NCBI GenBank assembly: GCA_964593885.1
Contig: CAZQKK010000001.1
Coordinates: 361,929-425,928, forward strand
Reading direction: 5' to 3'
Source: an uncultured Candidatus Saccharibacteria bacterium
Lineage (GTDB): Bacteria; Patescibacteriota; UBA1384; CAILIB01
DNA: 64,000 bases
Numbering within the stretch: position 1 is the stretch's first letter; each line of letters begins with the position of its first letter. The position numbers and the translations under genes are program-made. The notes below the pieces were generated by a model. It ran no database searches, was not told the DNA's origin, and was given only the letters and a program-made list of their open reading frames with translations. Shown here one piece after another: positions 2,437-27,695 of this stretch.

Positions 2437-2439
2437 GCT

Positions 2440-2856
2440 ATGAAGGCAGCGAGTATCTCCACATTCCTGATGGTTGCAGGAGCTGCCGTGCTTGGTGCAG
2501 GGTTAGTTATTGGAGCCGGTTACCTTGATCTCCTACCAAAGAACCAGCAAATTGCAGGCGTTACCCCTTCTCCTAAGCTTGAGATTGACCAAATCCTCGA
2601 GAAGCTAGAGGCTTCGCTTGAGCTCCCAAAAAGTGAGGTACCTTCGCTAGCCACGGTGACCGATCCCACCAAGCTCACTGATCAACCTTTCTTTAAGCGG
2701 GCTGAGGTAGGTGATAAGGTACTCCTCTACACAGAAGCAGGGAGAGCCGTTCTCTATCGCCCAAAAACGGGTAAGGTGATAGAGATAGGTCCATTTGTGC
2801 TCACCAACCCCTCCAGCAACCCACTCCTCACCGCAACTCCTCCAACGGGGAAATAG
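2440..2856 (+). CDS. Small N-terminally membrane-anchored hypothetical protein.
   Basis: ATG start 4 nt after the upstream stop, and one N-terminal TM helix (FLMVAGAAVLGAGLVIGAGYL). Confidence 0.4.
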   Translation: MKAASISTFLMVAGAAVLGAGLVIGAGYLDLLPKNQQIAGVTPSPKLEIDQILEKLEASLELPKSEVPSLATVTDPTKLTDQPFFKRAEVGDKVLLYTEAGRAVLYRPKTGKVIEIGPFVLTNPSSNPLLTATPPTGK

Positions 2857-2857
2857 C

Positions 2858-3937
2858 ATGCATACCAGGAAGATCCTCAGTACTCTCGCTGCAATCCTCC
2901 TCCTCACCATGGGGAGTGTTGCGGTTGCTGAAGATTTCTCTTCCGGTAGCTTTACAGTGAAGGACCCAGTTATCGGGCAGGGAGCACTAAATAACGCGAG
3001 TAGCTCAAGCTACCAAAACTCAGGTGGGAGTGGTGATGCTGCCTCTGGTAATAGCAGCTCGGGAAGTTTTGGAGCTGAATCTGGAGGGCAAGAGTTTGAT
3101 ACCACCGAACCAGTTACGGGTACGGTAAGTGACGGTGCAGGAGCAGATGTTGATTCCCAGACGAGCATGACCACCATCCAGGCAAACTGGAGCGGTTGGA
3201 GTGATCCGGAATCAGGTATCTCCCTGTATGAGTATAAGCTCCAACGAGAGGTTGATAACCAGTGCTGGGATGCAACGGGGAACAGCTGGTCAGCCTGCAA
3301 CGTCTGGAACGCAAATGGTACCAGTACCAGCTACAGTTCAAGTCACGCAAACCTCGCTCTGAGGACTGGGACAAACTACATCACCTGTGTGAGGGCGACC
3401 AACAACGCCAACCTCGTGAGTAGCGCCGTCTGCTCGGATGGGGTAGGAATTAGCCCAAGTACCACCCTTTCGTACAGCACCACAGCAAACATCCCAGCTC
3501 TCAACCCGGCAAACAGCTGGAACGCCACCGCAAATACGGTGATTACCATCGTTACCAACGCCTACAATGGGTACATTGTGTACGGCTCAAAGACAGACCT
3601 GCTTCGCTCCCTTTCCTCACCCTCTAAGACCATTTCAGACATCTCTGATGGTGGCTGTAGCGGGTCTGCGGTGCCTTGGCCAGGAGGTGGGGGGTTTGGC
3701 TTCACCAGTTCAGATGACATTGACGGCAACAAGTTCACCACCGCTACCAAGTACTGCAACTTTCCTACCACCATCACTCCAACGCTCGGTAGGCAGGTGG
3801 CAGACAGGGTTTCGGCAATTACCGGCGCAGCAGCTACCGACAACCACACCATTACCTACCGAACCCAGGTAACCACGGCTCAGGAATCTGGTCAGTACCA
3901 GACCGGTATCATTTACACCATTATCCCGCAGTACTAA
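2858..3937 (+). CDS. Secreted Ser/Gly-rich Cys-containing hypothetical protein.
   Basis: ATG at 2858 preceded by GGGGAAA. Signal peptide MHTRKILSTLAAILLLTMGSVAVA. The stop overlaps the next start (TAATG). Confidence 0.5.
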   Translation: MHTRKILSTLAAILLLTMGSVAVAEDFSSGSFTVKDPVIGQGALNNASSSSYQNSGGSGDAASGNSSSGSFGAESGGQEFDTTEPVTGTVSDGAGADVDSQTSMTTIQANWSGWSDPESGISLYEYKLQREVDNQCWDATGNSWSACNVWNANGTSTSYSSSHANLALRTGTNYITCVRATNNANLVSSAVCSDGVGISPSTTLSYSTTANIPALNPANSWNATANTVITIVTNAYNGYIVYGSKTDLLRSLSSPSKTISDISDGGCSGSAVPWPGGGGFGFTSSDDIDGNKFTTATKYCNFPTTITPTLGRQVADRVSAITGAAATDNHTITYRTQVTTAQESGQYQTGIIYTIIPQY

Positions 3938-4899
3938 TGCTCCTACTTCGCCCAGCAAGCGCCATCGTAGGGGTTCTGCTGGTTTTGGGTCTCTTCGCCC
4001 CGTACCGCGCCCCACAGCGCGCCCATGCTGAAGGTAGGGTGAACCTGAGGATAGCGCCGGTACTGATAGAGGATGAGGCAAATCCAGGCGAGACCATTAC
4101 CCGGATGATCAGCGTTGAGAACCTCTCAAACGAGATTCTCCCTGTTCAGGCATTTGCGGCAGATGTCTACAGTATTGATGAAGCAGGGAGGCTTGGGGTA
4201 GATGGCTCAGCAGGGAGTAGCTCGGCTAAAGATTGGTTCAGGTTTGATAGGGAAATGATTCTCGATCCAGGCGTCGAGCGGCAAATTGAAGTAGCAATTG
4301 TCATCCCAAAGAATGCCCAGCCTGGTGGGAGGTACGTCTCGGTGTTTGTGAATCCACTTGCCGACAACGTAACCGAGAGTGGGACCAGTAAGCTCAACGT
4401 TCAATCCCAGATTGGGGTGCTCTTCTTCCTCACCGTGAAGGGAGACGTGCTGAAACGAGGGGAGATCAGTTCCTTCAGTATCCCTTGGGTGAACATCGGG
4501 GGCGAAGTACCAATGAAGGCATCGCTCAAGAATACTGGAAACGTCCACCTGAGACCTCACGGGGTAATTGTGGTCAGGAACATCCTGGGGCTCACCACCG
4601 ATGAGGTGAACATTGAAGACTACGGATCAATCTCAGCGTTACCAGGAAAAGTTCGTACAACTACTGCTAGGTGGGAGGGTGCTTTCCCCATAGGCATTTA
4701 CCGGGCAGAGCTAACGCTCACCAATGGCCCGGGGTTCAGGCTCACTGCGTCTAGGTGGTTTGTGGTTTGGAACATCTGGCTCCTTGTTGTGATGCTGCTT
4801 GCGGGGTTCTTTGGGTGGTTGTACTGGTACACAAACGGCAAGGCATACCGTAGGAGGAGGGTAGCAAAGCGACAGATTTCCCGACACAGACGGATTTAG
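3937..4899 (+). CDS. Cell-surface protein with signal peptide and C-terminal TM anchor plus polybasic tail.
   Basis: N-terminal signal peptide, beta-rich ectodomain, and C-terminus WNIWLLVVMLLAGFFGWLYWY followed by RRRRVAKRQISRHRRI. A resemblance to the DUF916/DUF3324 'DufA' architecture is tentative. Confidence 0.5.
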   Translation: MLLLRPASAIVGVLLVLGLFAPYRAPQRAHAEGRVNLRIAPVLIEDEANPGETITRMISVENLSNEILPVQAFAADVYSIDEAGRLGVDGSAGSSSAKDWFRFDREMILDPGVERQIEVAIVIPKNAQPGGRYVSVFVNPLADNVTESGTSKLNVQSQIGVLFFLTVKGDVLKRGEISSFSIPWVNIGGEVPMKASLKNTGNVHLRPHGVIVVRNILGLTTDEVNIEDYGSISALPGKVRTTTARWEGAFPIGIYRAELTLTNGPGFRLTASRWFVVWNIWLLVVMLLAGFFGWLYWYTNGKAYRRRRVAKRQISRHRRI

Positions 4900-4922
4900 T
4901 GTTTAGTGTATTAAACTTACCA

Positions 4923-4953
4923 AATATACGCTCCAGTAAGCGTATATTTTTTG
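4923..4953 (+). terminator. Rho-independent terminator after the surface-protein operon.
   Basis: AATATACGCT-ccagta-AGCGTATATT hairpin followed by TTTTTTG. Confidence 0.6.
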
Positions 4954-5119
4954 TTTATAGCTAAGAACAGCAATTTACAGGTTCAAACTTCCACTTTTCA
5001 GGTTAACTATCTAGCTCAATTTCACCTTAGACTAAAGACTACTCCTAGAGCAGGTTATCCCTCTCTGCAAACCTGCGGGGGGTTAAAATGCTCGATTTTG
5101 CAGGTTCGTTCTCGGTATA

Positions 5120-8100
5120 ATGACAGAGATGCGAAGTTCAGACACGATTTTCGAGGTTCAGGCACTCCCGCCAAAGCACCGTCCGCTCAAGCGAGCGCAC
5201 CATCTTTTGATGTCCAAGGGTGGTACTTATCACCGCTGGCACCAGCACCCTCACCACAAGAAAATTCACTGGGCCATCTTCGGACACTACGTAGCTGCCA
5301 TTGCCATAGTTGGGGCCCTCGTTCTCCAGGGTGGCTTTGGGTCTACCGCCCTTGCAGCTCCGCTCACCTACACGGTTTCAAACAAGGATGCCTGGAACCA
5401 GGGAACCCTAAGTAATACTGACAGTGAAACTACCGCTGGAGACCTCAAGGTTGCCCCAGATGGTGCTTGGACAGCCAGAACCTGGAAAACCCCACCAGAA
5501 ACCCTCACGCTAGGGGCGGCATTTGCCACTGATGACACTGACGTTTTTGTCCTCAAGGGTAACGGAGACAACGCTTTCTGGAAGTACTCGCCAACCCTCA
5601 ACACTTGGTCGGTGCTCACAAACGCTCCATACGGTGCCTACGGTTCAAGCTTGCGGATGGGCGGAGCAGATACGCTCTACGCCATCTTTGGTGGCTACAT
5701 CGCAAAGTTTGCCAAGTACACCATCTCAACTAACACCTGGACGCTACTAGCAGATCTACCTGATACCGTGTTCAACGGCTCAACACTCGGGTGGACTGGG
5801 TCTGCCCTCTACCTGCTGCGCGCCGGTGGCACCCAAGATTTCTGGCTCTATGATACGGCACTTGATTCTTGGTCTTCGGTGGCAGGTCCTCCAGCCACGG
5901 TTGGCTACGGAGCTGACCTAATTTGGGATGGTTCAACGTACTTCTACACCCCAAGGGGGGCTGGTACTAACACCATCTACCGGTTCGCTCCTGGTACCAG
6001 CACGTGGTCAACCATGAGTACCAACTACAGTACCACCATCAGTGAAACCTCGTTTGGGGTCTACTACTCAGGTGCCCTCTACTTCATGCGCGGTACCAAT
6101 ACCGCAAACTTTGACAGGTGTACTATTAGCGCGCTCACCTGTAGTGGGGGAGCATGGACGGCGCTCACCGCGTTTCCAGCGGCAACCCGCTACGCCGGCA
6201 TGGTCTACATCCCAAGTCTCACCCAGTTCCTCGTATTCAGAGGAAATACCACTATGGAGCACTGGCGGTACAACATTGCCGGCAACAGCTTTGTTGGACC
6301 AGCAGCGTACCCAGCAACAACCGGTACCGGGAATGATTTACTCTGGGATGGATCAGATACGGTGTACAGTCTGCGAGGAGGGAATACCAATAACTTCTAC
6401 AAGTACACAATCTCTACCAATACCTGGGCAGCCCTGACGGTTACTGGTCTTGGCACCATCAACAGTGATAGTACCAACCTGGCAAAGAGCGGAAACTACG
6501 TTTATGCCCTGAGAGGTAACGGTACCAATACGCTCTACCGGTACGATGTCACTAACGATGCAGGTGGCTGGACAACCATGACCAACGCCCCAGCTACCAT
6601 CGCTGATGGTGGTGACTTTGTGTACCCGGGGAGTGGGAGCTACATCTACGCAACGAGAGGTACAAATACGGTAAGCTTCTACGCCTACCACATTGGGAAC
6701 AACAACTGGACCACCCTAGATCCAACTGATCCGGGAGTTGCGGTGAGTACGGGGGGAAGGCTTGTGAGCGATGGTACCAACGTCTACATGAACCCAGGCT
6801 TGGGTAACACCAATCTCTACCGCTATAACGTTGCAGGCAACAACTGGACTACCCTCAGTAGGATGCCATTTGCTCCCTACTACGGTTTTGATTTTGCGTA
6901 CAACAGCGGCAAAATCTACGCCACCGCGGGCAACTACGCTAACACCTTCTGGGAGTACAACATTGCGGGCGGCACCTGGAGGCAGCTCAAGTCAACCCAG
7001 AACGATACCACCAACGAACGCGGTTTCTACAACGGTGCTGCCATTGAGTACATTGGTTCAAACACCATCTTGGCAACCAGGGGAGCAGGGAGTTCCGAGG
7101 TCCTCAGCTTTAGTACGGGAAGCTACGAGTACGCAGCAACCGGAACCTACGTTTCGCAAACTTTAGACCTCTCCTACGTCGCCAGCTGGAATAGCCTGAC
7201 CCTTTCCACCTCAATTCCAAGTGGAGCTGCGGTAAGCTCGGATACCCGCACCAGTGCCGATGGGAGTACCTGGTCTTCGTGGGCTGCCGTCAGTGGTACC
7301 ACCATTAGTTCGCCCACCAACCGCTACCTCCAGATTAGAATAAATCTCACCGCCGGAACGGGAAGGTCTACTACTCCTACGGTTAGTGATTACGTACTCT
7401 CGTACAATACTGATGAAGCGCTTCCTACTAACCCGGCCACCTTTACCTGTAACTCGCAGGATGTGGGGGGTGTTGCGCTTACCTCTGGTAATACCTATAC
7501 CTACCCTAAACCATCGTGTAGCTGGACTGCTGGGAGCGATGGGGAGTCTGGTTTGGCTGGCTACTACGTCTACTTTGGTACCAACGCAAGTGCCGATCCA
7601 GCATCACTTGGGTGGCAGCAAACGGCTACTACCTATACGGTAGAGCAGCCAATTAGTGCAGGAACCTACTACCTGAGGGTTGCTTCTGTAGATGCTAAGA
7701 ACAACGTAGCAACAGCAACCACTGGCTTTACCTACGTCTATGCTGGTGTTTCACCCCCAACAACGGTAACTAAAACGCTTACCGCAGACTTTAGTGGGGG
7801 AACCGAGTCAAACGTAGTTACCACTTCAGACCAAATTAGGCTCACCAGTAAGGCTGGTTTCTGGCAGGAAGAGCGGCTCACCGCGGTACCTGCTGGTGTG
7901 GGAGCTGGAGCTGGGATGGTCTACAAATCAACCACTGGGCTCATCTACGTGCTACGTGGAAACGGTACCAACACCTTCTACTCGTACAACCCAACCACTG
8001 ACGCATGGGTAACGCTCAGTAGTACCAACTTGCCAGTGGTAAACGTCGGAGGCATGCTCGTTAACGGACCAGGAAACTACCTGTACGCTCATGCCGGTAA

Positions 8101-11100
8101 CAGTACCCAGAAGATGTATCGGTACGATATCACCAACGACGCCGCGGGGTGGGATGACCTGAGCGCCGAAGATTCTCCTTCTGCCTTTTCTACAGGCGGG
8201 TTCATGGTCAGTAATGGTACCTACATCTACGCCATGCGTGGAAACAACGATGATGCCTTCTATCGCTACGATCCTGCAACCACCAGCGATGGACAGTGGA
8301 CTACCATGGCAAACGTGGACTTTGGTTTCCCAACGGTGGGCCAAAACAACATTCCAACCACTGGTGCCGGTCTGGCATTTGATGGTGCCAGTAGCATCTA
8401 TGCAATTCAAGGTAATGGTCAATCTGGTGGGTTTGCTAAGTACAACATTGGGAGCAACACCTGGACACAGCTCTACAGTACGCCTCTCCCAATCATGCCA
8501 AATGCCGGAGCTTTCATTGCCTGGGATCCAGATCTCCAGAAGCTGCTCTACAACGCTGGAGCAATCTCAACCAAGACCTACCTCTACGACCCTGCTAACC
8601 CAGGTTGGACGGCGGTAGCTTCCGCTCCTGCCCAGATGAGTACCGGTGCCTTTGCCTTCAAGCAGGGGACGAAGTTCTACGTCTTGAGGGGTGGAAATAA
8701 CACCCAGATGTACACCTACAACTCAGCCAAGAACACCTGGCGTGTACCTGCAGCCGGCCTCTTCGGCTACAACTACGCAAGTGGTAGCAACTTTGGGGTT
8801 GGGTACGGAGCTGACATGATTACTGCTTCAGATGGCACTGTCTATGCTACCAGGGGTAACTACTCTTCAGACTTCATTAAGTACAACCCAACCACAGGGG
8901 CGGTTACCCGTTTGAGTAACCTACCTTCGGGTGTCTACCTAGGAGGTTCGCTGGTCTACCGGGCAAATACCCAGCAAATCTATGCAACTGTGGGAACTGG
9001 TACCAACAATGGTACTGCCTTCTTCATCTACACCATCTCCACCGATACGTGGGCAGAGCAAACCTCAGACCCACTTCCTATCATTGCTGGGGCGGGCTCT
9101 TCTATGGCTTACGACGGTTCACGCTACATCTACTACACGCGAGCAGGTACCTCTACCGGTTGGTACCGCTACGATACCTCTGCTTCAGTTGGGGCAAGGT
9201 GGTCAGCGGCCCTCCCTACCACTAACTTGCTCAACCTAGACTACGGTTCAGACCTCGTGTACCGCAGCGGCTACATCTACACACTTCGTGGTAGCAACGT
9301 CAATCCAAACATTCTCTACAGGTTTGATACCACCGCTCTTCCTGGTGGAACCTGGACAGCGCTTGCCTCAATTCCAAACCCAGTCTACAACGATGGCTTC
9401 ATGGTTGATGGTGGAAACGGTTACCTCTATGCAGCACGTGGTATCAACACTAACAGCGTCTATCGTTACGACATTGTAGGAAACACGTGGGCAACCGTAG
9501 CAAACTTCCCAGGTCAGGTTTCTATCGGAGGTGAGGGAACCACTAATGGTACTAGCAAGATCTACTCCTTCGCTGGGCAGGGAACCGCTACCTGGACAGA
9601 CGCTATCTACAGCTACGTTATTCAGAGCAGTAACTCTAGCTTTGAAGAAACTGGTTCATACACCTCACCTTCAATAGACCTCTCAACTGTCTACAAGTGG
9701 GCAAACCTCACGGTGGACTACACGGTGCCAAGTAACGGTGGGGTAACCATCGAAACCCGTAGTTCTGCTGATAATAGTTCATGGTCAGGTTGGGCAAGTA
9801 CCGGTACTGGTCAGCGCAACGGTACAACCTACACCTACGCCATTTCATCTCCTTACAACCGCTACATCCAGGTGAGATTCAGTCTCAGCTCCACCGATGG
9901 TGTCTTCAGTCCTACGGTGAGTAGCTTCCAGGTTAACTACTACCAAGATACTACTGCTCCTACTAACCCTACTGCTCTTGCGCTGGCAAAGTCACAGGCT
10001 TCTGGCGGAGTGAACATCACATCTGATACCTGGTACAACTACAGCGCCCCGTACTTTGAGTGGCCTGCCGCTGGCGACGTGAACGGTGCCGCAGATACAG
10101 CAGGTGGCAGTGGAGTAGCTAACTACTACGTCTACTACGGCACAGATAACACGGCAGTTCCAAGTACTGCTGGGGTGCTCCAGAGTGGGCGAAGCTACAC
10201 GGCGGGAGCAATGAGTAGCGGGCAGACGTACTACCTGAGAATCCAGACTGTAGACGATGCGGGTAACATTCAGGGAGCTATTTGGGATGCCTACACCTAC
10301 AAGCTTGATACTACGGCACCTACGAACCCAGGAAGTATTGGGGTAAATCCAGTTGGCTACACCAACGTAGACTCGTACACGTTTACCATTTCAGGTGGAG
10401 CTAGTGACGCAAACTCTGGTCTCCTCAAGTACCAGTACCGCACTGGGGCAGATGGTGCCAATACCTGGTACGACGTCTCGCCAGCTCTCAGTGCAACGGT
10501 AACACTCCCAGATGGTGCCCATACCCCCGCCCACTATGTAGACGGGGCAAATGTCTTCTACTTGAGAACTGTTGATGCTGCAGGCAACGTCGCTCCAACC
10601 CCAATTTCGGTGCAGTACTACTTTGGGAGCAGCGCTCCTTCGCCACCAACAAACCTTCAGGTAACACCAGCTACCAACACTACCAACTCGTTTACCTTTG
10701 AGTGGGAAGATCCAGCTGCCTTCATTGGTGAAGCCAATAAGCTTACCTACTACTACAGCGTCAACACCCTTCCAAATGAGTTCAATACCAATAGTACTAC
10801 TGCAAAGGCTGTGGGGCCTGCTCCATTTGCCAGCCAGCGTGGCACTAACCGCTTCTACGTTGTTGCTAAAGATGAGGCAGGTAACATTGACTACGACCAG
10901 TACGCCTATGTAGACTTCACCGCTGATACCTCAGCTCCTCCTGCACCTACTGCGGTTACCGCAAGTGATATCTCAAACAAAGAGGGAGGCGAGTTTAGGC
11001 TGGTTATCTCTTGGCTGGTTCCTACCATTACCGACCCTAACAACTTCAACGGGTACGACATTTACGCTGCCTCTGACGAAGCCGGTCCTTACACAAAGAT

Positions 11101-12463
11101 TGCAAACACTAGCGGTACCGCTTACGTACACACAGACCTGGTGAAAGATGGTGAGTACTTCTACTACGTCCAGTCTATTGATAAGACCGGAAACCACTCA
11201 GCATCTTCCTCAACTGCTTCAGCCATTGCCACAGGTAGGTACACCAAGGCGCCAGCCATCGTTTCTGAGCCGTCAGCAGTGTCACAGGCACGATCAGCCA
11301 AGGTAAGTTGGGCAACTGCTCGCCAGGCCACATCTGCAGTTGAGTACGGAACCACTGAAGAATTTGGTAATACCACAGGTAATTCACCTACCCAGCTGGT
11401 TACCAGCCACGAGGTGCTCTTGGGTAACCTACAGCCAGACACCGTCTACTTCTACCGTGCGGTATTCTTGGATGAAGATGGAAACACGGGAGTTTCTCCA
11501 GTTGCCTCCTTCCTTACCAAGCCAGCACCAGTTGTGGCAGGCCTCGAGGTAACCGACATTACCCTCAGCAGCTTCTGGGTAAGTTGGCAGTCAAATGTAC
11601 CTTCCCAGGGTGAGGTTGTCTACGGTGCTACCCAGGCATTTGGGGGAACAGTGAAAGAAGATCCTTTCTACACCACCACCCACCGGGTAAAACTTGAAGG
11701 GCTGCCAAGTGACACCATCCAGAACTTCCAGATTAAAGCTACGGATGAAGAGGGCAACATCTTCACCTCAGACATCTACACCCAAAGTACCTTGGCACTT
11801 CCTAAGGTGAGCAACGTGAAGCTTGAGAACAAGGTAGGGGTTGATACACCTACGGTGATCGTTCAGTTCTCTACCAACGTTGATGCAACCACCATCGTGA
11901 GGTACAGCACTGAGGGAAGCACTGAGAAGATCTACAGCGGTGTGGATTACTCTCTCGAACACGAACTTATTCTGGATGGCCTCCTACCTACCAAACCTTA
12001 CGTTCTGAAGATCAGTGGTAGAGATAGGTACGGAAACGAGTCAGCCCAGCAGCTCCACACCATTACCACCAAGTCTGATACCCTCCCTCCTAAGGTAGAG
12101 GCAATTACCGAGCGCCAAAGGGTTAGTGGAGAAGGTGCGGCGGCAGAAGCACAGCTTACCGTTAGGTTGACCACCAATGAGCCTGCTAAAGTAGTAGTTG
12201 AAGCAGCTCAGGGTACCGGGGCAACCCAGTTCACCATTGTTTCTCCTGAGCAGGCACTCAGTAGGGAGCACACCGTCCTCCTTCGCCTCGGAAAGCCAAA
12301 CGCCGCCTACACCTACAGGGTTACGGTGACAGATGAAGCAGGTAACCAGGCACAGACAGAAACCAAGACAATTGTGGTAGGTAGGGCAAACAAGGGAGCC
12401 TTTGAGCAGATTCTGGCTATCTTCAGCAGGAGCTTTGGCTGGCTCGGTTCAGTATTCAAGTAA
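5120..12463 (+). CDS. Giant surface protein (about 2447 aa): N-terminal TM, multiple Kelch-like beta-propeller repeats, a repeated beta-sandwich domain, and multiple FN3-like domains.
   Basis: Long ORF with one N-terminal TM helix (IHWAIFGHYVAAIAIVGALVL). It carries many '..GTNT.YRYD....W..L' Kelch-like repeats and repeated 'TAPTNP' FN3-like linkers. An alternative ATG start at 5210 is possible because TATAATG overlaps the 5120 ATG. Confidence 0.75.
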   Translation: MTEMRSSDTIFEVQALPPKHRPLKRAHHLLMSKGGTYHRWHQHPHHKKIHWAIFGHYVAAIAIVGALVLQGGFGSTALAAPLTYTVSNKDAWNQGTLSNTDSETTAGDLKVAPDGAWTARTWKTPPETLTLGAAFATDDTDVFVLKGNGDNAFWKYSPTLNTWSVLTNAPYGAYGSSLRMGGADTLYAIFGGYIAKFAKYTISTNTWTLLADLPDTVFNGSTLGWTGSALYLLRAGGTQDFWLYDTALDSWSSVAGPPATVGYGADLIWDGSTYFYTPRGAGTNTIYRFAPGTSTWSTMSTNYSTTISETSFGVYYSGALYFMRGTNTANFDRCTISALTCSGGAWTALTAFPAATRYAGMVYIPSLTQFLVFRGNTTMEHWRYNIAGNSFVGPAAYPATTGTGNDLLWDGSDTVYSLRGGNTNNFYKYTISTNTWAALTVTGLGTINSDSTNLAKSGNYVYALRGNGTNTLYRYDVTNDAGGWTTMTNAPATIADGGDFVYPGSGSYIYATRGTNTVSFYAYHIGNNNWTTLDPTDPGVAVSTGGRLVSDGTNVYMNPGLGNTNLYRYNVAGNNWTTLSRMPFAPYYGFDFAYNSGKIYATAGNYANTFWEYNIAGGTWRQLKSTQNDTTNERGFYNGAAIEYIGSNTILATRGAGSSEVLSFSTGSYEYAATGTYVSQTLDLSYVASWNSLTLSTSIPSGAAVSSDTRTSADGSTWSSWAAVSGTTISSPTNRYLQIRINLTAGTGRSTTPTVSDYVLSYNTDEALPTNPATFTCNSQDVGGVALTSGNTYTYPKPSCSWTAGSDGESGLAGYYVYFGTNASADPASLGWQQTATTYTVEQPISAGTYYLRVASVDAKNNVATATTGFTYVYAGVSPPTTVTKTLTADFSGGTESNVVTTSDQIRLTSKAGFWQEERLTAVPAGVGAGAGMVYKSTTGLIYVLRGNGTNTFYSYNPTTDAWVTLSSTNLPVVNVGGMLVNGPGNYLYAHAGNSTQKMYRYDITNDAAGWDDLSAEDSPSAFSTGGFMVSNGTYIYAMRGNNDDAFYRYDPATTSDGQWTTMANVDFGFPTVGQNNIPTTGAGLAFDGASSIYAIQGNGQSGGFAKYNIGSNTWTQLYSTPLPIMPNAGAFIAWDPDLQKLLYNAGAISTKTYLYDPANPGWTAVASAPAQMSTGAFAFKQGTKFYVLRGGNNTQMYTYNSAKNTWRVPAAGLFGYNYASGSNFGVGYGADMITASDGTVYATRGNYSSDFIKYNPTTGAVTRLSNLPSGVYLGGSLVYRANTQQIYATVGTGTNNGTAFFIYTISTDTWAEQTSDPLPIIAGAGSSMAYDGSRYIYYTRAGTSTGWYRYDTSASVGARWSAALPTTNLLNLDYGSDLVYRSGYIYTLRGSNVNPNILYRFDTTALPGGTWTALASIPNPVYNDGFMVDGGNGYLYAARGINTNSVYRYDIVGNTWATVANFPGQVSIGGEGTTNGTSKIYSFAGQGTATWTDAIYSYVIQSSNSSFEETGSYTSPSIDLSTVYKWANLTVDYTVPSNGGVTIETRSSADNSSWSGWASTGTGQRNGTTYTYAISSPYNRYIQVRFSLSSTDGVFSPTVSSFQVNYYQDTTAPTNPTALALAKSQASGGVNITSDTWYNYSAPYFEWPAAGDVNGAADTAGGSGVANYYVYYGTDNTAVPSTAGVLQSGRSYTAGAMSSGQTYYLRIQTVDDAGNIQGAIWDAYTYKLDTTAPTNPGSIGVNPVGYTNVDSYTFTISGGASDANSGLLKYQYRTGADGANTWYDVSPALSATVTLPDGAHTPAHYVDGANVFYLRTVDAAGNVAPTPISVQYYFGSSAPSPPTNLQVTPATNTTNSFTFEWEDPAAFIGEANKLTYYYSVNTLPNEFNTNSTTAKAVGPAPFASQRGTNRFYVVAKDEAGNIDYDQYAYVDFTADTSAPPAPTAVTASDISNKEGGEFRLVISWLVPTITDPNNFNGYDIYAASDEAGPYTKIANTSGTAYVHTDLVKDGEYFYYVQSIDKTGNHSASSSTASAIATGRYTKAPAIVSEPSAVSQARSAKVSWATARQATSAVEYGTTEEFGNTTGNSPTQLVTSHEVLLGNLQPDTVYFYRAVFLDEDGNTGVSPVASFLTKPAPVVAGLEVTDITLSSFWVSWQSNVPSQGEVVYGATQAFGGTVKEDPFYTTTHRVKLEGLPSDTIQNFQIKATDEEGNIFTSDIYTQSTLALPKVSNVKLENKVGVDTPTVIVQFSTNVDATTIVRYSTEGSTEKIYSGVDYSLEHELILDGLLPTKPYVLKISGRDRYGNESAQQLHTITTKSDTLPPKVEAITERQRVSGEGAAAEAQLTVRLTTNEPAKVVVEAAQGTGATQFTIVSPEQALSREHTVLLRLGKPNAAYTYRVTVTDEAGNQAQTETKTIVVGRANKGAFEQILAIFSRSFGWLGSVFK

Positions 12464-12471
12464 GGAGGGGA

Positions 12472-13398
12472 ATGGCTACGAAGAAACACGAAAAGAAAGG
12501 GGGGTTGAGCATTGCAGAGCTTGCAAAGTCTGCTGCTACTTTTCGTGCAACTGGAATGGAGTCTGTCGCCCCACGAAGGCATGAGCGAGGCCTGAGAGAT
12601 GACAAGGAGCACACCCCAAAGCCAGGTGCTCCTGCTATTGAGGCTAAAAACATTGTGAAGAACTTTAAAACAGGGGATGGAAGTACCGTGAGCGTTCTTA
12701 AAGATATTGATGTCACCATTCAGCCTGGCGAATTCATCATGATCCAGGGTCAGTCCGGTAGTGGTAAGTCTACATTCCTCAACGTCATGAACGGCTGGGA
12801 GCAGCCAACAGGAGGAAAACTGCTCATTGAGGGGCAGAACATCTACGAGTGGACTGAAGATGAAAGGGCACGTTTGAGGTGGGATGCCATCGCTCTCGTA
12901 CACCAGACGCCAAACTGGGTGAAGGCACTCAACGTGATTGATAACATTGCCATCCCTCACATGCTGGCTCGGCATACCCAGATTGAAGCTAGAAAACGCG
13001 CCTATGAGCTCTTGAGACTCCTGGAGTTTGAGCGGTTTGCCTACTACAAGCCGGTAGATCTCTCGGGAGGACAGCAGCAGCGTATGAGTTTCCTACGAGG
13101 CCTCATCAACAACCCCCGGATTATCATGGCAGACGAGCCAACGGGAAACCTTGACTCTGTGTCTTCAGATATTGTCATGGAGTTCTTTGACAGGATTAAT
13201 AAAGAGCTTTCGCGCACTATCATCATGGTTACCCACAACCTTGATCTCCTTCACTACGCCGATAGGGTGATCCACATTAAGGATGGAAAGGTAGATAAGA
13301 TTGCCGTGAATCGAAAGCGCAAGATTGAACCTCCTAAGTACCGAGATGTCCTTGAAATGGTCTTCTCAGACAACATCAAGCGGGAGGATCTCAAATGA
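12472..13398 (+). CDS. ABC transporter ATP-binding protein (MacB/LolD/FtsE family).
   Basis: Strong SD (AAGGAGGGG) before the ATG. Walker A GQSGSGKST, signature LSGGQQQR, Walker B IIMADEP. It has an N-terminal extension of about 60 aa. Confidence 0.9.
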   Translation: MATKKHEKKGGLSIAELAKSAATFRATGMESVAPRRHERGLRDDKEHTPKPGAPAIEAKNIVKNFKTGDGSTVSVLKDIDVTIQPGEFIMIQGQSGSGKSTFLNVMNGWEQPTGGKLLIEGQNIYEWTEDERARLRWDAIALVHQTPNWVKALNVIDNIAIPHMLARHTQIEARKRAYELLRLLEFERFAYYKPVDLSGGQQQRMSFLRGLINNPRIIMADEPTGNLDSVSSDIVMEFFDRINKELSRTIIMVTHNLDLLHYADRVIHIKDGKVDKIAVNRKRKIEPPKYRDVLEMVFSDNIKREDLK

Positions 13399-14597
13399 GG
13401 TGGCGCTACATCCTCGCTATTAGCTGGAAGAGCCTGATGGACAGTAAGATCAGGTCTATCCTTACCATCATGGGAGTTATTATTGGCGTGAGCGCGGTAA
13501 CCTTTCTAATCGCACTTGGGTACGGTTTTGAGAAGATGACCACTAGCCAGGTGAGTACCGAGAACGCTCTCAGAAGCTTTGATGTAAACCTTGATGATAG
13601 TGACCTTGTGGCAATTAGCCCCGAGGACCTTTCACGTTTCAAGGGAATCTCAGGTGTAGAGGATGTTGAGGCTGCCGTTAACCTTGCCGGCAAGGTGCTC
13701 TACAAGAACGTCAAGAGCGACATTGTAATCAATGGGTACAGCAAGAAGTTCTTTGAGATGAGCAACCTTAGGCTCCTGCGAGGTGAGGTGTACCAGGACG
13801 ACGCAAAGAGTGATGGCGTTGTGGTGAGTACTGCCCTCCTCACCACCCTCAACATTGCGGTGAACGATTTTGCCGGTACCACCCTGGGGGTGGAGGTGCA
13901 GGCAAGTAAGTCACTCTCACCTTCGCTCAAGGATGGTGAGAAGCGCACCATTGAGAACCTCAAGATTGTAGGGGTTATCGATGAGAATGAATCTCCGTTT
14001 ATTGTCCTGCCGTATGAGCGAATTAAAGCGGATGTGTTAGTAGCAAACTACAACACCGCAAAGTTGGTGACTACAAGCGAAGAGAAGGTGCCAGATATTC
14101 GTGAGCAGGTGAGTAGGGATGGGTTCTTCACCAGCTACGTAGGGGATACCATCGCCCAGATTAACTCGTTCTTTACCATCTTCAGGTACGTGGTAGCTGG
14201 ATTTGGCCTGATTGGAATGCTCGTTGCCGTACTTGGCATGTTCAATACCCTTACCGTTTCGCTTTTGGAGAGAACGAGGGAAATTGGTGTTCTCAAGTCT
14301 AACGGCGCTACTAGCCAGGATATCTGGAGGATGTTCCTCACCGAGGCAATGATCATTAGTACAGTAGGAGGTATTGCCGGCCTCGTGATGGGAGCCATTA
14401 TTGGCGAGACCATCAACTTCATCTTCAACGTCTACGCCAACCGCAACGGAGCCCTGCCAGTAGACTTCTTCTACGTGCCATTCTTCTTTGTGGTTGCAAT
14501 GGTTCTCTTCGTCCTCTTGATGGGAATTGGTACGGGGTACTACCCATCCAAGCGGGCAAGTAGGATTAGAGTTCTCGACGCACTTAAGTACGAGTGA
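13395..14597 (+). CDS. ABC transporter permease, FtsX/MacB-like.
   Basis: 4-nt ATGA overlap with the ATPase gene. N-terminal TM, large extracytoplasmic domain, three C-terminal TMs, about 400 aa. Confidence 0.8.
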   Translation: MRWRYILAISWKSLMDSKIRSILTIMGVIIGVSAVTFLIALGYGFEKMTTSQVSTENALRSFDVNLDDSDLVAISPEDLSRFKGISGVEDVEAAVNLAGKVLYKNVKSDIVINGYSKKFFEMSNLRLLRGEVYQDDAKSDGVVVSTALLTTLNIAVNDFAGTTLGVEVQASKSLSPSLKDGEKRTIENLKIVGVIDENESPFIVLPYERIKADVLVANYNTAKLVTTSEEKVPDIREQVSRDGFFTSYVGDTIAQINSFFTIFRYVVAGFGLIGMLVAVLGMFNTLTVSLLERTREIGVLKSNGATSQDIWRMFLTEAMIISTVGGIAGLVMGAIIGETINFIFNVYANRNGALPVDFFYVPFFFVVAMVLFVLLMGIGTGYYPSKRASRIRVLDALKYE

Positions 14598-14920
14598 TGC
14601 TCTCAGAAGCCCAACTCCTCCAGCAACGTAAACGCGAGAAGCAGTTCCACAGCCTGCTCCACAACGTGTGGTTTATCAGGTTTACCTCTGTTGTCGCCTT
14701 TGGCCTCTCAACAGTTCTCTTTGGAGCGATGCAGAGCTACCAGTCTGGTGGCTACTCGCTCCTGATCATTATCTTTGGTGCACTCCTCAACTTCATCTTC
14801 TCCTTCAGTAAGAACGTCGATATTAGGGAGGCAGTTCACGTACTCACCTTTGTGCTGTACTTGGGTATTCTCTACGCGGGTGGGATTAGCTTCTTCTTTT
14901 TCCTTGTGATAAGAGGGTAG
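14594..14920 (+). CDS. Small 3-TM membrane protein, hypothetical.
   Basis: ATGA overlap with the permease gene; hydrophobic segments. Confidence 0.4.
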   Translation: MMLSEAQLLQQRKREKQFHSLLHNVWFIRFTSVVAFGLSTVLFGAMQSYQSGGYSLLIIIFGALLNFIFSFSKNVDIREAVHVLTFVLYLGILYAGGISFFFFLVIRG

Positions 14921-14924: not shown

Positions 14925-15668
14925 GTGGGAGGCGCGGCCAAAAACCGGCGAGGGATAGGGTTTGCTGCAGCACTGATTGTGAGTGCTATTTCAGGTTTTT
15001 TTGCAGCTGCAGTGCCTTTTGGAGGTGAGCTCTCAGCAGTATCAAACCTGGCTGTCATAGTTTTTGCACTCCCAGCGCTCGTAGCCCTCTACCGTGTGGT
15101 GTCGCCGCAAAAGCTCTGGATACTCTTGGTACTAGCCTCATTCGCCATCCTAGTTGAGGCACTTTCAATTACCACGGGGTTTCCCTACGGTTTTTTCACC
15201 TACGGCTCAAAGATGGGGTGGCGGCTCGGAGGATTGGTGCCGTGGACGGTACCTTTTGCCTGGGTACCACTGGTGGTTGGTGCCGTGGCAATCTCTGCAA
15301 AGGTTGTGCCTAGGGGTGCCGCCAGGTTTGTCCTGGCCGTGTTGCTTCTCGTATTCACTGATCTCCTCCTAGATCCAGTTGCCGTTAAGCTTGGTTTTTG
15401 GAGCTACACATCTCCGGGTAGCTACTTTGGGGTACCCTTGAGTAACTTCATTGGGTGGGTTGTAAGCGGCGCCATTGGCGTGTTCCTCCTCAACCAGATG
15501 CTTCGTGGTAAACAAATGGGCAACCTCGCCACCAAGGGCTTCATCGCCATCCTCATCTTCTGGTCTGCAGCAGCCTGTACCCTTGGTCTGTACCTACCAC
15601 TACTCGTGGGCTGTGCCCTCATCCTCTTCACCTGGGGGACACAGGAGCAACAATTTAGGCTATTCTGA
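14925..15668 (+). CDS. Polytopic membrane protein; a link to the DUF422/carotenoid-biosynthesis-associated family is tentative.
   Basis: GTG start. Multi-TM with GFPYGFFTYG and LDPVAVKLGFWSY motifs. Confidence 0.45.
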   Translation: MGGAAKNRRGIGFAAALIVSAISGFFAAAVPFGGELSAVSNLAVIVFALPALVALYRVVSPQKLWILLVLASFAILVEALSITTGFPYGFFTYGSKMGWRLGGLVPWTVPFAWVPLVVGAVAISAKVVPRGAARFVLAVLLLVFTDLLLDPVAVKLGFWSYTSPGSYFGVPLSNFIGWVVSGAIGVFLLNQMLRGKQMGNLATKGFIAILIFWSAAACTLGLYLPLLVGCALILFTWGTQEQQFRLF

Positions 15669-15692
15669 AGGGGTAACTGTAACATACAACCT

Positions 15693-16574
15693 ATGGCTAT
15701 TCGTACCGCTCTCATTACGGCAAGTGGATTTGGCAGCAGGTTCTTTCCTGTTTCAAAGAGTGTTCAGAAGGAAATGCTCCCTGTACTCAATCGCCCCGTA
15801 CTGGACTACCTGGTAGACGACTGTATCGCTGCAGGGATCACCAACATCATCCTTACGGTGCGAGAAGGCCAGCCTTTAGTTCCTTACTACTACACCGAGC
15901 AACCCGCGGTGAAGCAGTTCTTTGATGAGCGTGGTTGGGGCGAAAAGTACGCAGCCCTTGAGACCCTCCACAACAAGGCTACCTTCACCTTTGTCACCCA
16001 GAGTCACGAAGATGGCTACGGAACAGGGGTGCCGGTGAGACTTGCCCAGAAGTACCTGGAGAACGAGGAAGCCTTCCTCTACCTCACTGGTGATGACTTT
16101 ACCTACAGCGGCCAGGGAAGTAGCAGTGCCTCTCAACTCATGTCGGTATGGGAGGAGACGAGAGCTGCTGCAGTTTTGAGTTGCCGAGAAGTTGAGTCAG
16201 AGCTAACCCACAAGTATGGCATTGTAGAGACCAGGGAAGAGGGTGGTAAGCAGTTCCTCACTACCTTCATTGAAAAGCCTGCCCAGGGAACTACCGCCTC
16301 TCGTCTAGCAAACATCAGTAAGTACGTCTTTACCCCAAGCATCTTCCCACTCCTTGAGAACCAGGGAGTTGATCAGAAGTCTGGTGAGCTCTACGTCACC
16401 GATACGGTACTCTCGCTATCAAAACAGCAGCCAGTAGCCGTGCACGTCCCACAGGGAGACTACCTGGACTGTGGTAACGTAGCGGGTTGGTTGAAAGCAA
16501 ACCTGAAGCTAGCATCCGCAGATCCAGCGCTCTGGGGTGAGCTTTCAGCCTACGTGTCTGAGCTGAATAAGTAG
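15693..16574 (+). CDS. galU: UTP--glucose-1-phosphate uridylyltransferase (GalU family nucleotidyltransferase).
   Basis: N-terminus AIRTALITASGFGSRFFPVSKSVQKEMLPVLNRPVLDY matches the GalU motif G-x-G-T-R-x-L-P-x-T-K-x-x-P-K-E-M-L-P. Confidence 0.75.
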   Translation: MAIRTALITASGFGSRFFPVSKSVQKEMLPVLNRPVLDYLVDDCIAAGITNIILTVREGQPLVPYYYTEQPAVKQFFDERGWGEKYAALETLHNKATFTFVTQSHEDGYGTGVPVRLAQKYLENEEAFLYLTGDDFTYSGQGSSSASQLMSVWEETRAAAVLSCREVESELTHKYGIVETREEGGKQFLTTFIEKPAQGTTASRLANISKYVFTPSIFPLLENQGVDQKSGELYVTDTVLSLSKQQPVAVHVPQGDYLDCGNVAGWLKANLKLASADPALWGELSAYVSELNK

Positions 16575-16575
16575 C

Positions 16576-17535
16576 ATGCAGGTACGAAAGCTACTGTACT
16601 GGGCTCTTGCGGGTCTCCTCGTTTTTTACCTGGTTAACCACCGTAACGAGCTTCTCCGTGTGGTTGAGGTTATGCTCCACGGAACGTGGTACTGGATGGC
16701 TTTTGCCGTAGTGTTCCAATCGTTTCACTACATCTTTCACGCAAATTCGCTTCGTGAGAGCTTTGCCTGCATGGGGATGGAGAGGAGGAGGCGGGAGTAC
16801 CTCCCAATTACCCTGGCTTCCCTTGCGGTAAACGTGGTGGCTCCAAGCCTCAATGTGTCGGGTGCCGCCTTTGTGGTAGATGAGATGAGGAAGAAGGGCT
16901 ACAAAGCAGTGGGAAGTGTCGTTGCAACGGCCATTGCGGTACTTTCTGACGGAGTGGCTTTCGTGGTTGGGGCCCTCTTAGTTGCCTGTTTCCTCTTCAT
17001 TAAACAGGAACTTTCAGCCCCAGTACTCCTCGGAGTACTCTTCCTCACCTCAACGGTTCTTACCCTGGTAGGACTGATTCTCTACTTCTGGAAGCGACCA
17101 AACTCTCTCAACTGGCTGTTTGCAATTATCGGGAAGAAGCGTGCTCACACCTGGAAAGAGGAGTGGCACAAGATTACCGAAGTGGCACTACCTTTCAAAA
17201 AGATTACCCCTGTAGTGATGTACGAGGGGCTTTCCCACCTCTCAAACTTTATTTCCCTCTGCTGCGCCTTCTTGGCATTTGGTGTGGATCCGGTGAGCCT
17301 CGTTCCGGCAACCGCCTACGTGGTAGCGGTGATCTTCATCATTTTTTCGCCAACCCCCATGGGCATTGGCTTTGCGGAGGGTGGAATGGCGCTGGCAATG
17401 GTAGGGCAGGGGGTGCCAGAGGCCGAAGCTACAGCCATAACCATCGCCTTTCGAGGTGTAAGTTTCTGGTTACCTTTCCTGATTGGGACCTTCTTTTTAC
17501 ACAAGATTCAGCAAGGAGCAGGACATGAAGCCTAA
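16576..17535 (+). CDS. Flippase-like integral membrane protein (UPF0104/LPG-synthase TM-domain-like).
   Basis: About 8 TM helices; the architecture resembles the lysylphosphatidylglycerol synthase TM region. Tentative. Confidence 0.45.
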   Translation: MQVRKLLYWALAGLLVFYLVNHRNELLRVVEVMLHGTWYWMAFAVVFQSFHYIFHANSLRESFACMGMERRRREYLPITLASLAVNVVAPSLNVSGAAFVVDEMRKKGYKAVGSVVATAIAVLSDGVAFVVGALLVACFLFIKQELSAPVLLGVLFLTSTVLTLVGLILYFWKRPNSLNWLFAIIGKKRAHTWKEEWHKITEVALPFKKITPVVMYEGLSHLSNFISLCCAFLAFGVDPVSLVPATAYVVAVIFIIFSPTPMGIGFAEGGMALAMVGQGVPEAEATAITIAFRGVSFWLPFLIGTFFLHKIQQGAGHEA

Positions 17536-18689: not shown

Positions 18690-18720
18690 TAAAAAAAGGT
18701 AGAACTGGTGTTCTACCTTG
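18690..18720 (-). terminator. Intrinsic terminator for the minus-strand plsY-fusion gene; the hairpin overlaps its stop codon.
   Basis: AGGTAGAAC-tggt-GTTCTACCT hairpin with a T-run on the minus strand. Confidence 0.5.
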
Positions 18721-21705: not shown

Positions 21706-21708
21706 GGG

Positions 21709-23502: not shown

Positions 23503-23581
23503 TCCTGGGACGAAACTACCCAGTGAGAAGTGGTCTCAGGGGGAGTTTTGCGTGAAGCCTTTCTTGGTGTAGCATGTACGT

Positions 23582-24136
23582 ATGTACGACGAGACCCACC
23601 CAGACTACAGTCACAAGATTACAAAAGATCTCTCACGCGAGCACCTCCTCCACAGGCTGGTTGCGGGGAGTGCTTTCATCTTTGCCCTCTGCATTCTCCC
23701 TGTTGCCCAGTACTTCCTCGTCCAGAGCAGAACTGAGGTTACAACAACTCAGGAGAAGGGTGAGGTTGCAGGTGTGAGTACCTCAAACAAGGACGCTGAT
23801 CCTGAAGTGCTCGGTGTCGCTGCTACCCCTGAAGCTTCACCAAAGACAAAGGCCGAGTGTGAGGCGAAGAAGACTAAAGACCTCGCAGACCTCCAGCGTT
23901 TCATTGACGGGAAGAAAAAGGCCATGCTTACCGGCTACGAGGTAAAGGTGCAGCCTTACCGCTACGCGCTCTCTGCCATCGATCCAAATAGTCCTTCAGC
24001 CTCAGCCGAGAGATCAGAGCTCACCAGCCTCATTGATGCCGAGTACCAGCCATACCTCAAAGAGTTAGCTACGGTTGAACAGCTAGTTGTAGATGAGAGC
24101 GCAAGAATTAACGGTACTGCCTGTCCGCTAGAGTAG
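23582..24136 (+). CDS. Hypothetical membrane-anchored protein.
   Basis: One TM helix followed by a charged/Lys-rich region; followed by a bidirectional terminator. Confidence 0.4.
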   Translation: MYDETHPDYSHKITKDLSREHLLHRLVAGSAFIFALCILPVAQYFLVQSRTEVTTTQEKGEVAGVSTSNKDADPEVLGVAATPEASPKTKAECEAKKTKDLADLQRFIDGKKKAMLTGYEVKVQPYRYALSAIDPNSPSASAERSELTSLIDAEYQPYLKELATVEQLVVDESARINGTACPLE

Positions 24137-24151
24137 TCCTCGGTAGGGGCG

Positions 24152-27694: not shown

Positions 27695-27695
27695 C

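Follow-up and report, generated by a model that had tools for sequence, protein, structure and literature searches.

A giant secreted Kelch/FN3 protein of Patescibacteria is genomically paired with a MacB-type ABC complex

We analysed a stretch of 64,000 nucleotides (nt) of contig CAZQKK010000001.1 (hereafter the window) from an uncultured, ultra-small member of the Patescibacteria, or candidate phyla radiation (CPR). In this window, the gene for a giant secreted protein of 2,447 amino acids (aa) is directly followed by genes for an ATP-binding cassette (ABC) ATPase, a MacB-type permease and a small protein with three transmembrane (TM) segments. A large part of bacterial diversity falls within the Patescibacteria, most of whose members are attached to other cells; to our knowledge, hardly anything is understood of the construction of their surface. 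The locus is best explained as a conserved Patescibacteria envelope module of three core genes plus a lineage-specific small membrane protein, in which a protein that ranks among the largest encoded by these small genomes is a deeply conserved component with a fixed ABC partner. Its elements, taken from the open reading frame (ORF) table, Pfam, motif scans and AlphaFold2 models, are the following (positions in the window):

5120..12463, + strand: giant secreted protein, 2,447 aa; family conserved at full length in Patescibacteria
5120..5356, + strand: putative N-terminal export signal, residues 1-79 (core residues 51-69, site ALA|AP)
5492..7114, + strand: first set of Kelch-like blades, ~12 blades, residues ~125-665 (motif scan, AlphaFold2)
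7892..9634, + strand: second set of Kelch-like blades, ~12 blades, residues ~925-1505 (motif scan)
9962..12379, + strand: C-terminal stalk, residues ~1615-2420, FN3/Pur_ac_phosph_N-like beta-sandwiches
12398..12460, + strand: conserved C-terminal tail, residues 2427-2447, AFEQILAIFSRSFGWLGSVFK; predicted amphipathic helix
12464..12470, + strand: Shine-Dalgarno sequence GGAGGGG, in the gap between the giant stop and the ATPase start
12472..13398, + strand: ABC ATPase, 308 aa (ORF table, Pfam)
13395..14597, + strand: MacB-type (type VII) permease, 400 aa (ORF table, Pfam)
14594..14920, + strand: small three-TM protein, 107/108 aa, overlapping the permease stop codon

The giant gene ends with TAA at 12461-12463 and, after the 8-nt gap that holds GGAGGGG, the ATPase starts with ATG at 12472. 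ATPase and permease overlap by ATGA at 13395-13398, with GGGAGGA just before, and the permease stop overlaps the start of the small-protein gene within GAGTGATG at 14592-14599, where translation begins either at GTG 14594 or, going by the homologue in the close relative L001, at ATG 14597. This reading of the sequence agrees with an initial annotation of the locus, which had the giant ending 8 nt before an ATPase with its own Shine-Dalgarno sequence, and both the ATGA overlap and the overlap of the permease with a small membrane protein. The same tight packing on one strand runs on through four unrelated downstream genes to 18685 (ORF table), and therefore spacing in the window alone is no evidence of a functional link. 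The evidence that ties the giant to the ABC genes is comparative synteny.

Pfam domains in the giant were called on whole-protein scores against the gathering cut-offs, which were exceeded by Kelch_1 (48.8 bits), Kelch_6 (49.5), Kelch_3 (44.8), Kelch_4 and fn3 (50.4). A scan for the blade motif located ~24 Kelch-like blades in two sets of ~12, twice the minimum of 12 given in the initial annotation. An AlphaFold2 model of residues 82-700 (predicted local distance difference test, pLDDT, 84.3; predicted template-modelling score 0.78) had its best Foldseek matches among two-propeller proteins, namely Aip1 (1nr0, template-modelling score 0.57) and GH74 (6p2l, 0.52), the GH74 matches being xyloglucanases. 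Blades 1-12 are predicted to form a tandem double beta-propeller, putatively with a 6+6 split. With its repeated Kelch motifs and the propeller-like model of blades 1-12, the giant can be placed among the Kelch-repeat proteins. Each blade set is trailed by a beta-sandwich and an FN3-like domain, with repeated ...NRYIQVR... and GYYVYFG motifs, which suggests an internal duplication; columns of the second set are also conserved in the family alignment. The stalk that follows gave Pfam hits to fn3 and PhoD_N, and a model of the last 330 aa (pLDDT 88.5) consists of three FN3-like sandwiches and a helix at residues 2427-2446. The top Foldseek matches of this model were tandem FN3 arrays, and SiiE was among the fold matches of the stalk; the fn3 score and the three modelled sandwiches characterise this part as an FN3 array. 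No hydrolase, coiled-coil or wall-binding domain was found in the giant (Pfam, AlphaFold2 models), and no wall-binding or sorting motif was recognised with Pfam and NCBIfam.

Residues 51-69 are the sole hydrophobic segment of the giant and follow a long, basic and His-rich n-region (YHRWHQHPHHKKIHW). The signal region contains no Cys, hence no lipobox. A hydrophobic core with a small-x-small site was present in 66 of the 67 evaluable family members, whose n-regions measure 16 residues in the median, 19 of them being longer than 40. The segment looks like a Sec-type signal peptide with a long n-region and not like a permanent anchor. The N-terminal TM segment of the initial annotation corresponds to this hydrophobic stretch, which, being followed by ALA|AP, looks more like a signal peptide. 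A His-rich cytoplasmic motif (Y-x-x-W-H-x-x-P-H-H-x-K-[IV]-H-W) lies at 5222-5272, just before the core; it is common to the window's lineage and is also carried by some tail-bearing giants without Kelch repeats (L090, from position 4745; P0283; P0319). We considered this motif as a hallmark of the family and discarded it, most members carrying ordinary short signal peptides instead.

The giant ends in a short tail that is conserved throughout its family. The helix is predicted at residues 310-329 of the modelled C-terminal fragment, and the motif F-G-W/F-[LIVM] lies 2-9 residues before the C-terminus; in the form F-[GSK]-[WF]-[LIMVF] it occurs within the last 16 residues of 114 of the 120 family members. 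In the tail alignment the Phe is invariant (118/118) and an upstream Ala nearly so (109/118). With a mean hydrophobic moment of 0.35 and a mean hydrophobicity of 0.06 the tail is amphipathic, and it was rejected as a TM anchor because it lies below the TM hydropathy threshold. Its profile hidden Markov model (HMM), run on all ORFs of ~2 Mb of Patescibacteria DNA and of the whole window, matched only the extreme C-termini of giants. We also rejected the tail as a known C-terminal sorting signal: no NCBIfam family, including those for LPXTG, PEP-CTERM, PGF-CTERM and the C-terminal domain (CTD) of the type IX secretion system (T9SS), matched at E ≤ 0.01. The giant has no second TM segment, lipobox or LPXTG motif; taken with its cleavable-looking signal peptide, this leaves the tail as the only candidate attachment point. 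The order of an N-terminal head, a stalk and a conserved C-terminus is that of C-terminally anchored surface proteins.

The ATPase scored 98.4 bits against ABC_tran (Pfam) and is predicted to be catalytically intact, with Walker A at 93, a Q-loop, LSGGQ at 197, Walker B and its Glu at 217-222 and an H-loop at 253. Its 55-aa N-terminal extension is specific to the lineage of the window. The nearest solved chains are MJ0796, Spr0694, the nucleotide-binding domain of MacB, LolD and YtrE. The permease matched both FtsX (78 bits, cut-off 25.5) and MacB_PCD (62.6, cut-off 27), and with the Kelch and fn3 matches of the giant, all four of the domains that the initial annotation had named for checking were above their Pfam gathering cut-offs. 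It has TM segments at residues 22-40, 265-283, 318-336 and 358-376, with ~225 extracytoplasmic residues between the first two, and its nearest solved chains are YtrF (9o9x), MacB, Spr0695, LolF and LolC. An FtsX domain, four TM segments, a large MacB_PCD and a cognate, apparently intact ATPase place the pair in the MacB superfamily. The small protein, with three TM segments and a motif SKN..RE, follows the permease in the window and in L001, L002 and L003/4 and is absent in more distant relatives, so that this 108-aa protein, being confined to the window's own lineage, was rejected as a core component.

Within the superfamily, none of the characterised groups tried accommodates the pair. The best full-length NCBIfam matches of the permease were MacB (77 bits) and lolCE (52.8); the ATPase scored 192 bits against LolD (cut-off 308), 177 against MacB (cut-off 966) and 164.6 against FtsE (cut-off 264.85). 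FtsEX membership was rejected on scores of 34.9, 40.5 and 29.9 bits for FtsX_Gneg, FtsX_actino and FtsX_Gpos against cut-offs of 255, 250 and 225, all confined to residues ~246-385, and a PDB sequence search with the permease returned no FtsX chain at E ≤ 1e-3. LolCDE membership fell on lolCE (52.8 against 362 bits) and LolD (192 against 308) and on the signal region of the giant, which lacks Cys, and the MacB exporter equivalog (PRK10535) on 77 and 177 bits against a cut-off of 966, with no adaptor among the conserved neighbours. The grouping with housekeeping FtsEX or LolCDE, named at the outset as a finding that would speak against a dedicated machine, was accordingly not observed, and from its profile scores the pair is classed as a distinct, MacB/YtrEF-like subfamily of the MacB superfamily.

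Its likeness to MacB of MacAB-TolC lies in the complete ATPase motifs, in a four-TM permease with MacB_PCD between TM1 and TM2, and in the fact that MacB is the best full-length NCBIfam match of the permease and, with YtrF, one of its best solved matches. Here, however, ATPase and permease are separate polypeptides (fused in locus L042 only), the scores are far below the equivalog cut-off of 966, no adaptor or TolC is encoded among the neighbours, and the partner is a giant protein and not a small substrate. Patescibacteria are generally described as single-membraned. We know of no giant partner of YtrEF, the MacB-type pair of the Gram-positive Bacillus subtilis (PDB 9o9x), whose permease is the closest in sequence among solved structures (E = 1.4e-22), although the match is confined to the TM2-TM4 region. 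YtrEF has been linked to cell-envelope phenotypes (PMC8060467).

The giant belongs to a family conserved over its full length. Its 120 best matches share 36-94% identity and cover 84-100% of the query; complete relatives are 2,277-2,747 aa long, or 2,345-2,747 aa in a second tally, match 94-100% of the query and, outside the closest relatives, share 36-53% identity, three shorter entries among the 120 looking truncated. Taken overall, family members measure ~2,370-2,670 aa and are 37-45% identical. Named relatives come from Moranbacteria, Parcubacteria, Shapirobacteria and Dojkabacteria. An alignment of 16 sequences has a mean column identity of 49% and ~200 invariant columns along the whole length. 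In a search covering one genome per GTDB species, tblastn confirmed giant relatives in at least 504 of 599 pattern matches. Homologues of both permease and giant come from metagenome-assembled genomes of Patescibacteria/CPR, which confirms the CPR-like origin supposed initially. In 60 complete trios, the giants shared a median pairwise identity of 40%, the ATPases 47% and the permeases 37%. That the giant is as conserved as the two ABC proteins beside it speaks against a host-specific adhesin: by these comparisons it is a family conserved at full length and not a fast-evolving or variable adhesin, and the strong conservation likewise argues against a host-specific ligand for the propeller heads. 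Many contigs bearing the module (L016, L018, L020, L023, L027, L030, L037, L051 and others) are titled in public records as Gammaproteobacteria, Pseudomonadales, Bdellovibrionales, Melioribacter, Weeksellaceae or Fimivivens; these non-CPR titles are probably wrong taxonomic labels or reflect bin contamination.

Synteny was assessed in the loci of the best 80 of the at least 504 species-level Patescibacteria genomes, which span Moranbacteria, Levy-, Roizman-, Woese-, Shapiro-, Collier- and Pacebacteria, Berkelbacteria, Dojkabacteria, WS6 and WS2, by searching their stop-to-stop ORFs with the permease HMM and the window's ATPase. The ATPase directly follows the giant on the same strand in 74/74 loci with at least 400 nt downstream, starting -40 to +420 nt from the giant stop, and a MacB_PCD/FtsX permease comes next in all 73 loci that extend far enough; the remaining six of the 80 end at the giant. 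Clustering of the neighbouring genes showed ATPase and permease to be the only neighbours conserved across loci, all other families varying. The conserved linkage of giant and ABC genes, which the initial annotation had listed for checking, is thereby demonstrated with differing flanks and, together with the identity of the pair as neither FtsEX nor LolCDE, gives good support to the dedicated pairing with an extracytoplasmic partner that had been proposed.

The linkage was also recovered starting from the permease, eight of nine distinct relatives (33-83% identity) adjoining a giant FN3 protein. In L002 and L003 the giant adjoins the pair with different flanking genes, and in L091 a tail-bearing Kelch giant of 2,923 aa adjoins the permease relative. 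It survives rearrangement: in L005/6 the order is ABC ATPase, permease, response regulator, a 2,829-aa Kelch giant and a second giant with DUF2341, and in CPR3 (L007/8) the giant is downstream of the permease. The regulator in L005 (11240-11704), between permease and giant, is a stand-alone receiver protein. Three classes of loci can be distinguished. Class A, to which the window belongs, has permeases of 400-450 aa. Class B permeases (~700 aa) carry a large insertion in the extracytoplasmic domain; as a rule, genes for a membrane rhodanese-like protein (23 loci) and for a prepilin peptidase (10 loci) come next. In the 13 class C loci, a protein of 130-140 aa with a TM segment and an FN3-like domain lies between giant and ATPase, and the permease has 830-865 aa. 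The extracytoplasmic domain thus varies from ~225 to ~650 aa between lineages, through insertions. The rhodanese-like and prepilin peptidase-like genes occur in Microgenomates-type loci (e.g. L017, 19906-21352), the peptidase being recognised by sequence alone. The class C insert (L020, 17089-17496, and 12 other loci) has its TM segment at the N-terminus, a single FN3-like domain and no Pfam hit, and could be an adaptor. In the Kelch family, the W form of the tail motif goes with short-domain permeases (31 loci) and the F form with long-domain permeases (44 loci), with one exception, a pattern that fits co-evolution of tail and permease.

The tail and the ABC pair are also found together without the Kelch head. 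Three permease relatives at 35-36% identity (L090, L091, L092) are preceded by other large proteins: in L090 a 1,491-aa protein with DUF2341, Gly_rich_2 and FN3 ends in ...SVFDIIVETLNATLGWLFRL and starts with the same His-rich motif as the window's giant, and in L092 a LamG/FN3 protein of more than 3,000 aa has a divergent amphipathic end. A profile of the last 115 residues (last FN3 domain and tail) was run against 1.84 billion representative proteins; generic FN3 repeats inflate the match counts (20,465, 7,290 and 2,263), which do not measure family size. Of the best 150 matches, an HMM recognised the same terminal tail in at least 45 and inspection by eye in ~57; these proteins have 962-6,321 aa and unrelated N-terminal regions, and one tail-bearing cluster includes an Uhrbacteria (CPR) fragment. 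Other FN3 giants among these 150 end in T9SS-type C-terminal domains or other signals; since such giants from other phyla end in T9SS-type domains, the tail occupies the place of a sorting domain. The non-Kelch giant of L094 (4,492 aa) is directly followed by ATPase and MacB_PCD/FtsX permease, and that of L095 (3,517 aa) by a small gene and then an ATPase before the contig ends. A metagenome scan with the non-Kelch tail alignment returned 15 loci, 14 of which had at least 1 kb downstream of the tail (L107, with 0.6 kb, is uninformative). Both ABC genes lie directly downstream in eight of these 14, an ATPase before the contig end in one and a permease match only in another. The ABC subfamily and giant secreted proteins with a terminal FN3 domain and amphipathic helix are thus established as obligate genomic partners. 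Because non-Kelch giants that share the terminal module mostly precede the same ABC pair, the pairing follows this module, and its determinant, as far as sequences tell, is the C-terminal FN3 domain with the amphipathic tail and not the Kelch head.

Several features were noted beside these non-Kelch giants. Their neighbouring ATPases in L096 (4521-5879), L100 (7556-9010) and L103 (8328-9659) are 440-485 aa long and carry a ~200-aa C-terminal extension of two helical repeats (…LD.P…GG.GL…); the 469-aa ATPase of L009 (8574-9983) is of similar length. Matches to 23S_rRNA_IVP/bAvd flank the tail-bearing giants in L094 (1165-4037), L095 (12674-12994) and L092 (13946-14290). Four-helix-bundle proteins of the bAvd type can be accessory factors of diversity-generating retroelements, and these genes hint that some tail-bearing giants may be targets of diversification. 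In L108 (11712-16278), several secreted proteins and a signal peptidase I-like protein (…SGSMSPAIHTG…) are encoded downstream of a tail-bearing giant without an adjacent ABC pair.

Members of the MacB superfamily (FtsEX, LolCDE, MacB, BceAB) act by mechanotransmission on partners outside the cytoplasmic membrane. Crow and colleagues are said to have described this in 2017, and studies of FtsEX with EnvC or PcsB and of LolCDE reportedly show ABC complexes acting on such partners. The giant would be exported by Sec through its N-terminal signal peptide, with four Kelch-type propellers forming the N-terminal head, the FN3 string a stalk and the 20-residue amphipathic helix its end. The MacB-type complex would be its dedicated membrane partner and, like other type VII ABC systems, would probably move nothing across the membrane. 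The tail helix and the last FN3 domain may dock on the permease, either on the extracytoplasmic domain or in an outer-leaflet groove between TM helices, and the complex could then keep the giant at the cell surface and transmit ATP-driven movements to it. We favour this reading, of a tail docked on the permease of a complex that anchors the giant and actuates it mechanically, with a confidence that falls just short of even.

Several points weigh against it. Docking of the tail, anchoring and mechanical actuation are steps that we infer, cleavage of the signal peptide at ALA|AP is predicted by simple rules, and co-regulation by itself can account for a conserved operon. As PBP5-type anchors illustrate, an amphipathic helix is able to fix a protein in the outer leaflet without a partner. 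The correlation between W or F in the tail and the size of the permease domain is confounded by phylogeny and reflects two large clades. Finally, the permease of L009 (33% identity) has no giant within 10 kb, the tail-bearers of L104, L106, L108 and L109 have no ABC pair within 1.9-8 kb downstream, and that of L093 none within 1.2 kb; as two giants can lie beside a single ABC pair (L005), a pair that is missing downstream may still be encoded elsewhere in the genome.

The most serious alternative is an extraction or release like that of Lol, in which the tail (or an uncleaved signal anchor) sits in the outer leaflet and is pulled out by the MacB-type complex with ATP, so that the giant is freed to the cell wall or surface layer or handed on and the ABC pair serves as a maturation factor. 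The synteny and tail evidence apply equally to it, in its properties the tail resembles an in-plane membrane helix, and LolF and LolC are among the solved relatives of the permease. LolCDE and LolDF share the MacB_PCD architecture and act on proteins held in the outer leaflet of the cytoplasmic membrane. One pair beside two giants (L005) and tail-bearers without an adjacent pair would both suit a shared catalytic machine with several substrates. We nevertheless find extraction rather unlikely. Lol serves double-membraned bacteria; the giant has neither lipobox nor Cys, the lolCE score is 52.8 bits against 362, and neither LolA or LolB nor any LolA-like acceptor is encoded among the neighbours. 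A released giant would have no recognisable means of retention on the cell, no known wall-binding or sorting motif having been found in it (Pfam, NCBIfam), and the strict one-to-one adjacency in the Kelch family with its translational coupling suggests stoichiometric partners. A regulator of wall remodelling or division, with the giant as scaffold or activator of peptidoglycan or envelope enzymes, has FtsEX as its model: there a type VII pair transports nothing and acts mechanically on a dedicated extracytoplasmic protein (EnvC, PcsB, CwlO or RipC), which is a precedent for activation of such a protein. In favour of such a role, many CPR lineages conserve the module as they would a housekeeping function, the pair in CPR3 has a LysM protein in front of it, and the gene string of the window includes an alanine racemase. 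We judge it improbable, since the permease has a full MacB_PCD and not the small FtsX ectodomain, stays far below the cut-off of every FtsX model (30-40 bits where 225-255 are required, in the TM region only) and finds no FtsX structure among its PDB matches. The giant lacks a hydrolase, coiled-coil or wall-binding domain, the proposed contact being a short C-terminal helix; the wall-related neighbours are not conserved, and the non-Kelch giants with lectin-like heads do not fit.

Pair and giant might also have independent functions, the former exporting or conferring resistance to a small molecule, peptide or lipid and being merely co-transcribed with the latter. Export and resistance are common roles of MacB-family pumps, the Joint Genome Institute source annotation of the pair reads 'antimicrobial peptide transport system', and the tight packing in the window does extend into unrelated genes. 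Set against an adjacency kept in 74/74 loci across deep divergence while all else changes, which survives a change of gene order (L005/6) and recurs with unrelated heads that share only the terminal module, this explanation has little to recommend it. A giant repetitive protein with a conserved C-terminus beside ABC genes further recalls the layout of LapA and SiiE, and of the MacB-like Aat system with its dedicated cargo dispersin, and the pair could on this analogy read the tail as a type I-like secretion signal and export the giant. Type I secretion systems, however, combine another ABC fold (ABC_membrane) with a fusion protein and an outer-membrane protein, and Aat needs N-terminal acylation and TolC. 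The permease here has the FtsX/MacB fold, clustering of the neighbours revealed no gene for a membrane-fusion or outer-membrane partner, and the giant bears a Sec-type signal; on these three counts we rejected type I-like export as highly implausible. The suggestion in the initial annotation that the ABC pair might export the giant is likewise unlikely, the giant carrying its own Sec-type signal peptide.

To return to docking and anchoring by the ABC complex, that the linkage tracks the C-terminal helix suggests a previously undescribed way to hold or handle giant surface proteins. A further proposal, which we advance with some diffidence as possible and distinctly below even, is that the F-G-W/F-L tail with the last FN3 domain is a new C-terminal sorting or anchoring signal and the MacB-type pair its ATP-powered receptor. 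LPXTG/sortase, PEP-CTERM/exosortase and T9SS CTD systems likewise place a short C-terminal motif on otherwise unrelated large surface proteins, and their cognate machinery is often encoded next door. They differ in that the tail here has no TM helix and basic tail, matches no NCBIfam sorting-signal model and has no protease or transpeptidase nearby, the candidate machinery being an ABC complex. If true, this would be a surface-display system built on a type VII ABC complex, in the role of sortase or of the T9SS C-terminal-domain machinery, with a signal common to a superfamily of giant Patescibacteria surface proteins with Kelch, LamG/DUF2341, glycine-rich or other heads. The literature searched, whose incomplete coverage gives no proof of absence, held no description of the module. 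Type VII ABC pairs, Kelch repeats and FN3 domains are of known kinds; novelty appears to lie in the fixed nature of the pairing and in the terminal motif, with its spread across a superfamily of giants. Through the shared C-terminal motif, many further giant surface proteins are connected with an ABC complex of this kind. Should docking be true, giant stalked proteins held by a terminal helix would be a new class of partner for mechanotransmission ABC systems, and the tail would offer a simple sequence handle by which to list the proteins that uncultured CPR bacteria display on their surface.

The module is flanked by the following features:

4922..4949, + strand: terminator-like hairpin, 11-bp stem and then a T-run
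14925-18685, + strand: downstream genes, Caroten_synth-like, NTP_transferase, LPG_synthase_TM and alanine racemase
18696-18719: terminator, at the end of the tightly packed same-strand gene string

The hairpin divides an upstream cluster of secreted-protein genes from the giant gene, and because of this separation the module probably begins a transcription unit of its own. The downstream genes (14925-18685) were rejected as members of the module, being co-located in the closest relative, L001, only. Scans of the window against Rfam and for tRNAs gave no matches, and a promoter scan of the window gave no more hits than shuffled sequence. At the start of the giant gene (5098-5131), a TATAAT hexamer (5116-5121) overlaps the ATG annotated at 5120 and is followed, ~7 nt further on, by another ATG at 5129, the nearest -35-like element (TTGCAG) being only 12 nt upstream; the giant mRNA may be leaderless and start at Met4 (ATG 5129). 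Upstream, four co-directional genes for secreted or membrane proteins (97-4899, + strand) have no Pfam hit. Their products are a Gly/Ser/Thr-rich protein (779 aa), one with an N-terminal TM segment (138 aa), one with a signal peptide (380 aa) and one that combines a signal peptide with a C-terminal TM segment and a basic tail (320 aa), and at least the 380-aa and 320-aa genes also lie upstream of the giant in L001.

Elsewhere in the window, a type IV pilus cluster (36798-42231, + strand) encodes a PilB-like ATPase, PilC, PilM, PilN and PilO. The first 57 residues of the PilB ORF match Bac_DNA_binding (HU) and the ORF overlaps a clamp-loader gene on the opposite strand, so a small HU gene may have been merged into the PilB call. 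A cluster for glycogen and starch metabolism (20623-32798) comprises genes for GH15, phosphorylase, debranching enzyme, glycogen synthase, GH57 and a GT4/GT5 synthase.

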